From Escherichia coli (GTDB lineage Bacteria > Pseudomonadota > Gammaproteobacteria > Enterobacterales > Enterobacteriaceae), in NCBI RefSeq assembly GCF_024298765.1, contig NZ_CP101212.1: a DNA stretch of 64,000 bases; one strand, 5' to 3'. Position numbers and translations under genes: made by a program. Below are positions 3,657 to 13,877 of the stretch, one piece after another. Positions within the stretch are counted from its first letter, which is position 1, and each line of letters opens with the position of its first letter. The notes under the pieces are model-generated. The model saw nothing but the letters and a program-made list of their open reading frames with translations, searched no databases and had not been told where the DNA came from.

Positions 3657-4766
3657 TTATTTAAAATCAACTTCCATTTGTTGTTGAATTGAAAGGTGTT
3701 TTGTCGTTTCTATACAGTATTTAATATAATCAGTAAACTTTGGCGGTTTAGGCATTCCGATACTCAGTAGCTTGTCGTTACTGAAACAAACATTGAGCAT
3801 ACTGAACGCTCCATATAAACGAATGGCTTTTAACATAAGGCGTTCGTTACAGGGACCAAAAATATTTTTAAAATCATGACGGCTCATTGCCAGTATGTCA
3901 TAACTGACTTTAGTATATCTGTCTCCAACAGGATCACAGTTCAAAGCACGGGCTACAGCTTCGTCAATAGCAGAGAACGTCACACTACTTTCTTTACCTG
4001 CTGATATATGAACAATCTCACCATTAATTAACGAACTTTCAAGCAACATTAGCAATGCATCAGCACAATAATCTACAGGGATAACATCTATTTTATCATC
4101 CAGAGAGCACATAAATTTTTGCAACATTAACCCCATTCTGAATACCCAGAAAATACTGGTTGAAGGTAAGCACCCTAAACGACTGTGGCCAACAATAATT
4201 GATGGTCGGGCAACCAACAAAGGTAAATCAGGACACTGCTTACGCATCAGATATTCTATTGTTGCTTTTGAATGCGTATACTCCACTAAATGTTCACCTG
4301 TTTCTGATGAAGCAGACTCTTCCTTAACTAGCGACCCCGTATGAGGTGTACAAGACATAGCAGTACCAACATGAAGGAAGCGTTTCAGTCCTGCCACTTT
4401 TGCCATTCTTCTTGCAAAAGCAAGTGTACCTGTAACATTCACATTCCATATAAAAGGATTATTACCAAAAGAAGCTATAGCCGCACAGTTTATAACATGA
4501 GTGACTTCATCAAGACGAGGATCCATGAGAAAGGCTTCCGGATTATTTAGATCCCCAGGCAAGATGTTATCATTAGTTAATGCATGCAACCTTTCCTCAC
4601 AAACATTAAATTTACGCATATTTTCTTTAATTCTTTCCAGTCCCGCTTGTGGAGTAGGTGCTCGTACTAAAAGTAGCAAATTTATATTATTACAGTTATC
4701 CAGCAGCTTATCCAGGACCGCGCCACCAAGAAATCCTGTTGCACCTGTAAGTAATAACAATTTCAT
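3657..4766 (-). CDS. hlyF: HlyF, NAD(P)-binding SDR/epimerase-family protein
   Basis: 369 aa; N-terminal TGATGFLG Rossmann motif; position between mig-14 and ompT. Confidence 0.7.
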   Translation of the reverse strand: MKLLLLTGATGFLGGAVLDKLLDNCNNINLLLLVRAPTPQAGLERIKENMRKFNVCEERLHALTNDNILPGDLNNPEAFLMDPRLDEVTHVINCAAIASFGNNPFIWNVNVTGTLAFARRMAKVAGLKRFLHVGTAMSCTPHTGSLVKEESASSETGEHLVEYTHSKATIEYLMRKQCPDLPLLVARPSIIVGHSRLGCLPSTSIFWVFRMGLMLQKFMCSLDDKIDVIPVDYCADALLMLLESSLINGEIVHISAGKESSVTFSAIDEAVARALNCDPVGDRYTKVSYDILAMSRHDFKNIFGPCNERLMLKAIRLYGAFSMLNVCFSNDKLLSIGMPKPPKFTDYIKYCIETTKHLSIQQQMEVDFK

Positions 4767-5198: not shown

Positions 5199-6158
5199 TT
5201 AAAAATAATACTTCAGACCAGCTGTGGTCATAAAGTTATAGCTTTCAATGCCTGCACCATTTTTGGTGTGATCAGATATATTCAAATTTCTGGAGTACAG
5301 AGAAGTATCACCTTTCTTATTAGTAATACGGTTCCATGTTCCTTCGACATAAACTTTAGCTGCAGGTGTAATATAATAACCAGCATGTAGTGAGACAGAG
5401 TAATAGTTCTGATTATTTACATCGCTACGATAGGTGATCCTTTTCTCAGGGTTGTAATGCTCATCATTATCCGATGCCTTCACCCATCCGCTATATTTGA
5501 AACTCCCCCCGAACTCAAAGCTATCATACCGATAATTACCGGTTAACCCTATATAGGGCATTTTAAAGTGTTGTTTGTAGCCTATAGCTCTTTCACCATC
5601 TGGAAATGATCCCGTTTCATCCCGGAAGCCTCCCTCACTACTATAGATATAAGAGCCTCCTTTTGCTGTAAAGCTATAACGATTTTCCTGGTAACCAGCC
5701 ATAAGACCTAACTGATAGTCTGGTTGATTCAGGAGCCATCCCTTAATATTCAGGTCGAATTCATTAGCAAAATTTAGACGGGTATTCGGATGTTTACTCT
5801 CATCAGTCCAGGTTCCGGGATTGCTCGTATCCAGCCAGTCCCTGTCCACCATATTGCCTCCACGACCAGCTAATGTTGTCCACCCTGAGGCACCGACAGA
5901 TACTCTGGGTAACAGATCCCAGTTAAATGCCCCCTTGACAATTGGCGCATTACTGTATTTCCAGTCCAGCTGGCTGGCTTTGCGCCCTTTTTCTTCAGGC
6001 AGATAAACCCGTTCTTTGGCCTTGCCACTTAAAGTGCCAAAATCAATCTCCGTACTGATTTTCTCCGGTGTAAAAGAAAGCCCAGTATCAGAAGCCAGTG
6101 CAGCAAACGCTACAGGAGCTGAGAGTGCAGTAGCAAGAATCTTTAAGTACATAGACAA
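5199..6158 (-). CDS. ompT: Omptin-family outer-membrane protease (plasmid-borne OmpT)
   Basis: 319 aa with signal peptide and beta-barrel terminal F; omptin-like sequence throughout. Confidence 0.85.
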   Translation of the reverse strand: MSMYLKILATALSAPVAFAALASDTGLSFTPEKISTEIDFGTLSGKAKERVYLPEEKGRKASQLDWKYSNAPIVKGAFNWDLLPRVSVGASGWTTLAGRGGNMVDRDWLDTSNPGTWTDESKHPNTRLNFANEFDLNIKGWLLNQPDYQLGLMAGYQENRYSFTAKGGSYIYSSEGGFRDETGSFPDGERAIGYKQHFKMPYIGLTGNYRYDSFEFGGSFKYSGWVKASDNDEHYNPEKRITYRSDVNNQNYYSVSLHAGYYITPAAKVYVEGTWNRITNKKGDTSLYSRNLNISDHTKNGAGIESYNFMTTAGLKYYF

Positions 6159-7394
6159 GTTAACTCCATTCCACTCGTTTGTTTTTGATAAATATTTTTT
6201 TATTTACTCGTAGTAGTCAACTGAAAAATGCTGTTTTGTTTAACGTTTGTTTACAATGTGGCCGCATGTCGCTTTATTTATTCCCTTTTATGTCAGAATA
6301 TCAGGGGAGTCAGTCAAACCCGGTATGATTACTGCCCCGGTCATCCATGTTCCAGGAAATATCAGGGCATACAGGGTGCTGGTAACTGCGAATAAGGCCC
6401 TGGTCGGACACTTTATGCCGGGAACGTCTGTAACATGGAAACCGGTACCTTCTTCCTGGGTTTATTTTGTTAACTCTTATCTAAAGGGAGACAAAATGGC
6501 CAAATCCTGCGATTATGAAGCAATCAGGGTTTTTATTAGCGTTAATGTCGGCAAATATACCAATAACGCCATTACAGTTAATTATTCAGATAGCGTTTGT
6601 GCGACAAGGCATTACCATTCGACGAAAATAAACTCAGGTGGTTGATATCAGAAATCAACCGTGGCTCCACCTACAAAAAAAGTTGCTGGTTTATAAATCC
6701 CTCCTTTCTGATTAATAAGAAAACTAATAACATATGAGTATAATTACTTGTTCAGATAGGTTAATTATCTTCGTGATTGATATTTATTTGGTTTCAGTAA
6801 AAATGATGTTTTTATTATAAAGTTTATAAATACCAAGTCGGTGGTGTTTATTAGTGTAATGGAGGGGAGTGCGTAAATCGTTACATGTAACACTTCCTTC
6901 CAATAATACTTTATAAATCAATAAATGTATGATTACTTATTTCCTGAAATATCACATATATTGCTATATTTCTTAACGAGATATTCTTATTTTATTGATG
7001 ATTGCATCTCTTTTATTTAATGTAAAGCTTTCTTATTAATCTTCTAATGTATTGCAAAATGGTAGATGCTGAGTAATCAACAGACTTGTATGTAAAGTCA
7101 AGATTAACGTTGCTAAAGCACGCATCAATTTTCTGATAAAAGGATGTGGTTGTTTTTTTCGATAAAAAAAATTCTTGTCTAACCGCTGGTGAAATAAGAT
7201 TATTATTACCCCGGATTAATACTGAGCCTAACAATAGAATACAAAAAAAACAAAATGCTTTAAATAAGGGGAGCACTATAAGTTATCCTCTTTACTTTAT
7301 GCTTACCAACTCATTTTGTTACTTTATAACATAACTCATCTTGCGTTGTAAACAGACTCGTTTTAGTTCCATGCACCTTTTGAGATCGTGACCA

Positions 7395-7620
7395 AATAAT
7401 GGCGTTAGTGATGTTCTTCCAGTGTCATATGGTTAAGTGGTTGATATGGCGTTCACTGTTATATTCTGACAACCAGTTTGCCGCCAGTTCCCGCTTTTCA
7501 TCCAGCGTTCTGAACAGACAAAAACCGAGTATTTTTGTTCGGTATGTCCGGTTAAAACTCTCGATAAAAGCGTTCTGCGCCAACTTACCTGATTGGGTAA
7601 TCTCCAGTTTTACTACATGT
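7395..7620 (-). pseudogene. IS3-family transposase orfB 3' fragment
   Basis: Minus-strand translation gives ...GKLAQNAFIESFNRTYR...WLSEYNSERH..., the conserved IS3-family C-terminus; no N-terminal part present. Confidence 0.4.
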
Positions 7621-7766
7621 TTTTCTGCGCATTACGTCCGTGTTGGATAAAAAAAATCCTGGCCATAATCTATGCGAATCATAGCTGGATAGACATGGTT
7701 TTCCGCAATCCTTGAACCGCCCCGGGAATCCTGGAGACTAAACTCCCTGAGAAAGAGGTAAACAGG

Positions 7767-8093
7767 ATGACTAAAAATACTCGTTTTTCCCCCGAAGTCC
7801 GTCAGAGGGCGATTCGTATGGTTCTGGAAAGTCAGGGCGAATATGACTCACAGTGGGCGGCAATTTGTTCCATTGCCCCAAAGATTGGCTGTACACCGGA
7901 GACTCTGCGTGTCTGGGTACGCCAGCATGAGCGGGATACCGGAGGCGGTGATGGCGGGCTCACCACCGCTGAACGTCAGCGTCTGAAAGAGCTGGAACGT
8001 GAAAATCGTGAACTGCGCCGCAGTAACGATATCCTTCGCCAGGCTTCCGCTTATTTTGCGAAGGCGGAGTTCGACCGCCTCTGGAAAAAATGA
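7767..8093 (+). CDS. IS629-like transposase OrfA (HTH)
   Basis: 108 aa, recognised as IS629/IS1203-type OrfA. Confidence 0.8.
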
Positions 8094-8966
8094 TGCCACT
8101 GCTGGATAAGCTGCGTGAGCAGTACGGGGTCGGACCGCTATGCAGCGAACTGCATATTGCCCCGTCAACGTATTACCACTGTCAGCAACAGCGACATCAT
8201 CCGGATAAACGCAGTGCCCGTGCGCAGCGCGATGACTGGCTGAAGAGAGAGATACAGCGCGTATACGATGTACGGTGTGCGTAAAGTCTGGCGTCAGTTG
8301 TTACGGGAAGGAATCAGGGTGGCCAGATGTACAGTGGCGCGCCTCATGGCGGTTATGGGACTTTCCGGTGTTCTCCGGGGTAAAAAGGTCCGCACTACCG
8401 TCAGCCGGAAAGCCGTTGTCGCAGGCGACCGCGTAAACCGTCAGTTCGTGGCAGAACGTCCTGACCAGTTGTGGGTGGCTGATTCTACTTACGTCAGCAC
8501 ATGGCAGGGGGTCGTCTATGTGGCGTTCATCATTGATGTGTTTGCCGGATACATCGTGGGGTGGCGGGTCTCATCGTCTATGGAAACGACATTTGTGCTG
8601 GATGCTCTGGAGCAGGCGTTATGGGCCCGTCGACCGTCCGGCACAGTCCATCACAGTGATAAAGGTTCTCAGTATGTATCGCTGGCCTACACACAGCGGC
8701 TTAAGGAAGCCGGATTACTGGCATCAACAGGAAGTACAGGCGACTCGTATGACAACGCGATGGCGGAGAGCATCAATGGCCTTTACAAAGCGGAGGTAAT
8801 ACACCGTAAGAGCTGGAAAAACCGTGCAGAAGTGGAACTGGCCACACTCACGTGGGTGGACTGGTATAACAATCGACGATTGCTGGAAAGGCTGGGCCAT
8901 ACTCCTCCGGCAGAAGCAGAAAAAGCTTATTATGCTTCCATCGGAAACGATGATCTGGCAGCCTGA
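8090..8966 (+). pseudogene. IS629-like transposase OrfB, split between two frames near 8270
   Basis: ORFs 8090..8284 and 8268..8966 are in different frames; DDE core intact in second piece. Confidence 0.55.
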
Positions 8967-12668: not shown

Positions 12669-13877
12669 TTGTTATGGAAAACATGGACAATGTTAATGAA
12701 ATATATTTCTCACCGCGCCATCATTTGTACCTTGACACTGTTGATCATTATTATCACCGTTTTGTTCACCTTTCTGAGAAGCTCTGATGTGCCAGAATAT
12801 ATTACTGCCCCGGTGCGCAAAGGCGATATAGAAAATTCTGTTCTGGCGACAGGCCGTATTGATGCAATTGAACGGGTAAACGTAGGGGCACAGGTATCAG
12901 GGCAATTAAAATCACTGAAAGTGAAACAGGGCGACCATGTGACTAAAGGGCAGTTGATTGCCGAAATTGACGACCTACCTCAGTGTAACGATTTGCGTAA
13001 TGCCGAAGCTGCACTCAACGAAGTGAAAGCAGAACTTCAATCCAAGCAGGCGCTCCTGAAACAGGCTGAACTGCGTTTTAAACGCCAGCTCCGGATGCTA
13101 AGAGAAAATGCCAGCTCACACGAAGATTTTGAGTCTGCGGAGGCAATGCTTGCGACCACTCGCGCTGAATTACATTCTCTGAATGCCAAACTGGTCCAGG
13201 CACAGATAGAAGTAGATAAGAAAAAGCTTGCCCTTGAATATACGCGAGTCGTAGCGCCAATGGATGGAATTGTTATTGCCATTGTCACTCAGCAAGGGCA
13301 AACCGTTAACTCAAACCAGAGTGCCCCAACAATTATTAAACTCGCTCGTCTGGATGTCATGACCATTAAAGCACAGATCTCCGAGGCTGATATAACCCGT
13401 ATTTCTGTGGGGCAAAAAGCCCGCTTCTCTATCTTCTCCGAACCGGACAAGCACTACAGCGCAACACTGCGTGCCGTTGAACTGGCACCAGAATCGGTAA
13501 TGAAAGATGACTCTCTCGCCAGCAACACTTCAGCATCAGGCTCCGGAACTTCAAATGCGTCCGTTTATTACAATGCTCTATTCGATGTGCCTAACCCAGA
13601 AAATCGACTTCGTATTGCCATGACTGCTCAGGTTACCCTGATTACTGATGAAGCCCAAAATACACTGCTGGTACCCATTCAGGCAGTGCACAGAAATGAG
13701 GGGAAGAAGCAACAGGTCCTGGTGCTGGCAGCAGATGGCAGGCTGGAACCCCGGAATGTGAAAACTGGTATCACGAACAGCGTGGATATTCAGATCCTCG
13801 AAGGTTTAAATGTCGGAGAAAATGTCGTGCTGTCGCTGCCGGATAAGAAAGAGCCCGAAGAAAGGATTATGCTGTGA
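12669..13877 (+). CDS. etsA: Membrane fusion (HlyD/MacA-like) periplasmic adaptor of the Ets efflux/secretion system
   Basis: 402 aa with N-terminal TM, coiled coil; overlaps start of the next gene. Confidence 0.8.
   Translation: MLWKTWTMLMKYISHRAIICTLTLLIIIITVLFTFLRSSDVPEYITAPVRKGDIENSVLATGRIDAIERVNVGAQVSGQLKSLKVKQGDHVTKGQLIAEIDDLPQCNDLRNAEAALNEVKAELQSKQALLKQAELRFKRQLRMLRENASSHEDFESAEAMLATTRAELHSLNAKLVQAQIEVDKKKLALEYTRVVAPMDGIVIAIVTQQGQTVNSNQSAPTIIKLARLDVMTIKAQISEADITRISVGQKARFSIFSEPDKHYSATLRAVELAPESVMKDDSLASNTSASGSGTSNASVYYNALFDVPNPENRLRIAMTAQVTLITDEAQNTLLVPIQAVHRNEGKKQQVLVLAADGRLEPRNVKTGITNSVDIQILEGLNVGENVVLSLPDKKEPEERIML

Follow-up and report, generated by a model that had tools for sequence, protein, structure and literature searches.

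Insertion sequences of the IS110 group share a layout in which a long non-coding left end (LE) precedes the gene for a DEDD/Tnp recombinase. As described for the IS621/IS110 bridge-RNA system, this left end encodes a bridge RNA, and the promoter is rebuilt across the junction of right end (RE) and left end in the excised circle (Durrant et al. 2024, PMC11208160).

ISEc20 of E. coli (NZ_CP158443.1, 1954018-1955214; transposase WP_001296203.1) belongs to this group: its 398-aa product is an IS110-family RNA-guided transposase with the domains PF01548 and PF02371 and the NCBIfam assignment NF033542. Its ends were fixed by comparing an occupied site with a second copy in another context and with an empty site, giving an element of 1,460 bp whose left end starts (CCCCC)GTTACTTTATTCG and extends for 232 nt before the ATG. 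It inserts at runs of C; in the ATCC 25922 copy, CCCCC is common to the flank and both ends. A perfect TTGACA lies in the right end, 20 nt from its terminus, and a perfect TATAAT lies 25 nt inside the left end. These two boxes are too far apart to form a single promoter across the circle junction, and a composite RE-LE promoter could not be identified by eye for ISEc20. In its leader, a CUCCC/GGGAG stem sequesters the Shine-Dalgarno (SD) sequence of the transposase gene. Membership of the family and a conserved fold suggest that the leader of the ISEc20 clade is a bridge RNA.

The locus considered here lies in the ompTp-hlyF module of ColV-type plasmids, in a window of 64,000 nucleotides (the whole stretch of DNA analysed; E. 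coli contig NZ_CP101212.1). Like IS621 and ISEc20 it has a long non-coding leader in front of a recombinase gene start; unlike them it has no recombinase and no right end to supply a promoter, and its leader fold is partly destroyed. ISEc20 measures 1,460 bp with a complete transposase gene, a right end and 58 of 58 consensus RNA pairs, whereas the window copy comprises about 400 bp, is frameshifted and keeps 43 of the 58 pairs.

A transposase start upstream of plasmid ompT

The features to which the text refers are the following.

3657..4766, minus strand: hlyF, left of the ORF
5199..6153 (or 6158), minus strand: plasmid-type ompT (ompTp), divergent and left of the ORF, placed from the annotation of homologous plasmids
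6220..6191, minus strand: promoter-like TTGACT-18-AATATT, a prediction that fits an ompT promoter and lies outside the IS remnant
6247..6645, plus strand: 132-codon ORF with a TTG start, from the ORF list; the 49-codon ORF is its 3' part
6266..6495, plus strand: leader remnant of an IS110-family left end, by blastn from 6308 on and by local alignment before that; left boundary +/-5 nt
6484-6490, plus strand: Shine-Dalgarno AAGGGAG with a 5-nt spacer before the ATG, aligned with the SD of the IS transposase gene
6496-6498 (ATG) to 6643-6645 (stop), plus strand: 49-codon ORF, peptide MAKSCDYEAIRVFISVNVGKYTNNAITVNYSDSVCATRHYHSTKINSGG, from the sequence and the ORF list
6496..6591, plus strand: codons 1-32, genuine IS110-family transposase N-terminus, by tblastn and BLASTP
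6592..6645, plus strand: codons 33-49 and stop, an out-of-frame read after a 1-nt deletion; three-frame translation agrees
6594..6662, plus strand: transposase remnant continued in the +2 frame, RLCDKALPFDENKLRWLISEINR, matched by tblastn to ISEc20 aa 34-56

The initial annotation had pointed to a small ORF with a strong ribosome-binding site in this divergent region, placing its start at 6481, a few bases 5' of the SD AAGGGAG. The SD, the 49 codons, the stop ending at 6645 and the location inside a 132-aa ORF are all present in the sequence and the ORF list, and the ORF start (SD, spacer and ATG) reads AAAGGGAGACAAAATG.

A sensitive blastn search of E. coli genomes, with more than 1000 records matched, aligned window positions 6308-6652 with the 5' end of ISEc20 at 73.7% identity over 345 nt. 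In the ISEc20 of ATCC 25922 this match takes in ~193 nt of leader immediately 5' of the transposase start codon and continues for ~158 nt into the gene. Pairwise and multiple alignments place AAGGGAGACAAAATG of the window column for column on AAGGGAGACAGAATG of ISEc20, SD on SD and ATG on ATG, so that leader, SD, start and the first ~55 codons are collinear. A tblastn search of the 64 kb with the ISEc20 transposase assigned aa 1-31 to 6496-6588 in the frame of the 49-codon ORF and aa 34-56 to 6594-6662 in the +2 frame (70% identity), with E=1e-10. Between 6591 and 6592 the window reads TTCAGAT-AGCG where every relative in the ISEc20 clade has TTCAGGTAAACG. This 1-nt deletion shifts the frame, and codons 33-49 are therefore not ancestral coding sequence. 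Over 56 residues, the 57-mer obtained by correcting the frame has 59% identity to the N-terminus of the ISEc20 transposase (BLASTP, E=4e-21). The first catalytic Asp of the DEDD domain, in GVDVGK, has become Asn in the window (SVNVGK).

Transposase homology stops at about 6662. Beyond aa 56 no credible tblastn match to the 398-aa transposase was found across the 64 kb, the remaining matches having E>=0.02, and the C-terminal Tnp domain with its conserved Ser (PF02371) is absent by the same search with the full protein. [quoted passage not shown] Neither the right end nor core-flanked boundaries were recovered when the whole of ISEc20 was compared with the window by blastn at word size 7, which returned 6308-6652 only; DNA similarity beyond 6652 does not exceed that of shuffled sequences. 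Two further candidates were discarded: a weak tblastn match at 13578-13703 lies inside etsA and is attributed to chance, and a candidate extension of the transposase beyond 6662 ('TGCTGGTT') scores no higher than shuffled sequence. Pfam and NCBIfam models matched neither the 49-mer nor the frame-corrected 57-mer, and the 132-mer matched no Pfam family at E<=10 and no NCBIfam model; these peptides are too short and too decayed for domain models to detect.

Comparison with other members of the clade places the window copy apart. ISSfl4 and unnamed IS110 copies in Shigella, Klebsiella variicola, Enterobacter and E. albertii are collinear with the window over the same 5' region (73-74% identity), and none of them is closer to it than ISEc20. 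The compared Shigella copies are mostly annotated as intact transposase genes, the other compared copies being pseudogenes or truncated. Identity within the ISEc20/ISSfl4/Enterobacter/Klebsiella cluster is 83-98%, and the window copy falls outside it.

The left-end leader and its predicted RNA fold

The homology extends through the non-coding leader. Some 230 nt (6266-6495) are collinear with the 232-nt ISEc20 left end as far as the terminal GTYRCTTTATT, where GTCGCTTTATT of the window matches GTTACTTTATT of ISEc20. Local alignment carries the similarity back to about 6266-6272 (GTCGCTTTATTTATTCCC); since it reaches ~6266, the left end looks complete, about 105 bp from the ompT start. The upstream region of K-12 ompT, compared with the window to locate the insertion breakpoint, shows only weak similarity, to about 6255.

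The leader also accounts for the longer ORF. Intact ISEc20 members have two in-frame stops in the leader, both of which are lost in the window, and the 132-aa ORF exists because of this loss. The 132-codon TTG ORF is an accidental open frame running from the IS leader into the transposase stub. The earlier remark that its upstream part lacks a start context comparable to that of the 49-codon ORF is thus borne out, this part being the non-coding LE leader.

The secondary structure of the leader was predicted by RNAalifold from seven clade members and two ColV alleles, an input in which the consensus is dominated by the intact clade. The consensus comprises two long interrupted stem-loops and a small stem sequestering the SD. 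The seven clade members keep 55-58 of the 58 consensus pairs, even at 13-17% sequence divergence, whereas the ColV remnant keeps 43-44 (43 in the window copy), with one compensatory pair against at least 12 broken ones. The damage is uneven: stem-loop 1 retains 15-16 of 25 pairs and its G-run is gone, stem-loop 2 retains 18 of 23 and the SD-sequestering stem 9 of 10. The -10-like TATAAT has become CAGAAT, and the minimum free energy of the leader is unremarkable (z=-1.3). No Rfam model matching the leader was found at E<=10 in 6000-7500; the only hit was a chance match to CbSR1 at 6697-6773 on the minus strand.

Six clade members agree at 291 alignment columns; the remnant departs from them at 62 of these (40 GC>AT and 15 AT>GC changes), and the GC content of the left end is 45% in the remnant as against 57% in ISEc20.

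It might be proposed that this left end is still active, either as the source of an orphan bridge-RNA-like transcript serving ISEc20-type recombinases in trans or as a regulatory part of ompTp. The leader is essentially full length, its stem-loop 2 and SD-sequestering stem are largely kept, the bridge RNAs encoded by IS110 leaders can act in trans (PMC11208160), ISEc20 copies are common in E. coli chromosomes, and no more than about 45 bp separate the predicted ompT -35 from the start of the remnant. Against this, stem-loop 1 has lost 9 of its 25 pairs together with the G-run, the fold is neither unusually stable nor matched in Rfam, the -10-like box is altered, and identity to ISEc20 is only about 74%. 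The natural promoter of a bridge RNA needs the right end (PMC11208160), which is absent here, and substitutions in the leader have accumulated at a non-coding rate. As to a regulatory role, the predicted ompT promoter lies outside the remnant, and ompTp is a pseudogene in two diverged modules. Continued activity of the left end is very unlikely. ompTp has been reported as a separate transcription unit (PMC5913352).

Polymorphism, distribution and coding potential

The 602 bp upstream of ompT are found at 98-100% identity in 659 PLSDB plasmids and 724 complete E. coli genomes, where they are nearly always unannotated. Two more distant versions of the module are informative. The first, on pVirR1 (NZ_CP031707.1), has a hlyF-ompT module 92-94% identical to that of the window, with ompT a frameshifted pseudogene, and carries the same frameshift and stop in the remnant; truncation and frameshift therefore predate the split from pVirR1. 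The second, on pRM11911 (NZ_CP051656.1), has a module ~80% identical in which ompT is not annotated, and is counted among the diverged modules with an ompTp pseudogene. Its similarity to the window covers the ompT-proximal DNA and no more than the first ~45 nt of the leader, after which it diverges; the ORF is missing.

Other orphan left-end fragments of ISEc20 type occur on p2RM10740 after fedF (2501-2655 of the extracted locus), in E. albertii NBRC 107761 and on pEA7_2 (1501-1848 of the extracted locus). Each is a truncated leader, in some cases followed by a few transposase codons, that rearrangement has left behind. These fragments are ~98-100% ISEc20-like and recent, whereas the ColV remnant is much older, more diverged and fixed in a widespread virulence module. 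On pEA7_2 an IS66-family end interrupts the copy right after 'AATATC', within ~3 nt of the point at which the window copy loses clear DNA homology.

An intact parental element was sought in several ways. A word-indexed protein search returned self-matches only. A full phmmer search of 1.84 billion representatives gave best N-termini at 60-62% identity, no better than ISEc20. A pattern scan of species-representative genomes recovered E. albertii and an Enterobacter (both about 73%) and a contaminated metagenome-assembled genome (MAG). The frame-restored version had 0 matches in a metagenome scan, and a leader motif specific to the lineage was found by metagenome scan in 19 contigs, all of them ColV or pVirR1-type remnants. 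With no intact parent found, decay is not fully separable from lineage-specific divergence. A 5.9-kb contig assigned to a Firmicutes MAG ('Planococcaceae bacterium UBA3370', DEQI01000184.1) matches the window at 97.5-98.9% identity according to the segment compared; it almost certainly comes from an E. coli plasmid that contaminated the bin.

On the other side of the ORF, 6663-7346 is very AT-rich (28.8% GC), occurs among E. coli genomes only in ColV-type modules and is the most polymorphic segment of the region. It contains an 87-aa ORF (7013..7276, minus strand) named 'O2ColV28' hypothetical protein, present in more than 1000 contigs and without a Pfam match. IS3-family debris follows at 7347-8966, with an rve_3 integrase-core fragment at 7425..7583 on the minus strand and an apparently intact IS3-like orfA/orfB pair at 7767..8966.

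Polymorphism was scored in 19 distinct sequences (22 in total, from plasmids and metagenome contigs) spanning 5199-7400. Leaving out two pVirR1-type sequences, segregating sites amount to 0.42% in the ompT coding sequence, 2.6% in the leader, 3.1% in codons 1-32, 5.6% in the ORF tail and 6.4% in the AT-rich sequence downstream. Among ColV-type sequences, variation in the ORF is thus about that of the non-coding flank and 7-13 times that of ompT. Considering all alleles, the 49 codons hold ~10 nonsynonymous changes (S4P, S5C, V12G, D21Y, G32D, R38M, H41Y, N46K, S47T and S47F) against 4 synonymous ones, which is near the neutral ratio. The pVirR1-type allele, with S5, D21 and G32, agrees with ISEc20 at those positions, which identifies C5, Y21 and D32 of the window as derived losses of family-conserved residues.

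The frame itself is unbroken throughout the 19 distinct sequences, among them the pVirR1 type at 92-94% identity. As all carriers are at least 92% identical, its survival is expected by common descent and is no evidence of constraint; frameshifted database variants exist but are rare (P0001 and P0004). The initial annotation had held that a reading frame not conserved in homologous regions would refute its proposal. The frame is indeed kept in its carriers, which at such identity is uninformative, and the 80% identical module lacks the ORF altogether. Between pVirR1 and the window the ORF differs at 5 of 150 positions (3.3%), the leader at 7.8%, 6646-6700 at 12.7% and the sequence further downstream at 8.9% (87 of 985 for the flanks jointly). 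Mosaic recombination, heterogeneity of mutation rate or weak constraint are possible reasons for the lower divergence of the ORF.

Automatic annotation of these frames has been inconsistent. The 129/132-aa form falls into a 485-member protein cluster, seen on more than 1000 contigs and often labelled 'GlcNAc transferase' (NCBI/UniRef) and once 'outer membrane protease'; PGAP sometimes annotates one of the two frames, long or 49-codon, as a hypothetical protein. The label 'GlcNAc transferase' is rejected: the 132-mer has no Pfam family at E<=10, and its sequence is IS leader read-through. For plasmid pS88, a qRT-PCR signal has been reported for pS88154, a hypothetical ORF of the original annotation adjoining ompT (pS88155) and not necessarily the 49-codon ORF; the values were 4.4-fold in serum, not significant, and 3.0 in vivo (PMC3438092). 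The current RefSeq record of pS88 (NC_011747.1) has nothing annotated in the region equivalent to 6160-7400.

These data bear on the proposal that the ORF is a functional 49-aa small protein, a transposase N-terminus put to a new use and translated from the strong ribosome-binding site that came with it. Its SD, spacer and ATG are perfect, its frame is unbroken in the 19 distinct sequences and the pVirR1 type, its divergence is mildly below that of the flanks in the pVirR1 comparison alone (5/150 vs 87/985), and several pipelines call a hypothetical protein. However, a third of the peptide is out-of-frame sequence, its polymorphism is flank-like and mostly nonsynonymous, frameshifted variants occur, and the copies are too closely related for retention of the frame to count. 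No sigma-70-like promoter was predicted on the plus strand upstream of the ORF. No homologues were found other than the ORF itself and IS110 transposase N-termini, consistent with the failure of Pfam and NCBIfam models to match it. We consider a functional small protein very improbable. The alternative offered at the outset, a small protein or a gene remnant, is settled in favour of the remnant, identified as the 5' end of an IS110-family (ISEc20-clade) transposase gene with its own ribosome-binding site; the out-of-frame tail and the mostly nonsynonymous polymorphism at non-coding level speak against the protein.

There is practically no chance that the ORF and its SD arose at random and are unrelated to any gene: the SD+ATG motif on its own is no more than chance (AGGGAG-N3-8-ATG has 1 match in the 64 kb against 2.7 expected, with at least one match in 89 of 100 shuffles) and ORFs of at least 30 aa are plentiful (50 in the 4.5 kb around it), but the column-for-column homology of SD, ATG and 55 codons to IS110 transposase genes (E=4e-21), besides 230 nt of collinear leader, sets the ORF apart and refutes this reading.

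A remnant of an old IS110-family insertion

A locus with this homology, frameshift, truncation, loss of RNA pairs and pattern of polymorphism is, on sequence evidence, very probably a fossil: the 49-codon ORF would be the dead, frameshifted and truncated 5' stub of an IS110-family element of the ISEc20/ISSfl4 clade. Such an element would have entered the plasmid upstream of ompT, about 105 bp from its start, and internal deletion or truncation would then have removed the remainder of the gene and the right end. The surviving parts are the leader (6266-6495), the ribosome-binding site and start (6484-6498) and ~55 N-terminal codons (6496-6662). The strong ribosome-binding site is inherited from the transposase gene and did not evolve for a small protein, and the stop at 6643-6645 is the first one met in the wrong frame. 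The segment probably travels as a passenger of the ompTp-hlyF-mig-14 virulence module on ColV-type plasmids, decaying neutrally. Most likely it has no present-day function and is presumably not expressed.

A more speculative scenario is conceivable, in which the fossil left end is transcribed by read-through or from a weak promoter and bound through stem-loop 2 by chromosomal ISEc20-type recombinases, or in which the 49-aa stub is made and interferes; we give it an extremely slim chance. Were a fossil leader bound in this way, the ompTp-hlyF module would be a preferred substrate for RNA-guided rearrangement. New biology would be implied only if the leader RNA proves to be expressed.

Reading the ORF as an IS110 remnant has practical consequences for curation. 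It removes a candidate small protein and accounts for the presence, upstream of a virulence gene, of a strong ribosome-binding site in seemingly non-coding DNA, and it identifies the 485-member cluster labelled "GlcNAc transferase" or "hypothetical protein" as IS110 leader plus transposase stub. The fragment is a previously unannotated, divergent example of a well-known type of element. Its presence means that an old insertion of IS110 type took place before the ompTp-hlyF-mig-14 module diverged into its ColV, pVirR1 and pRM11911 versions; being older than this divergence, the fragment can be used as a marker of module lineage.
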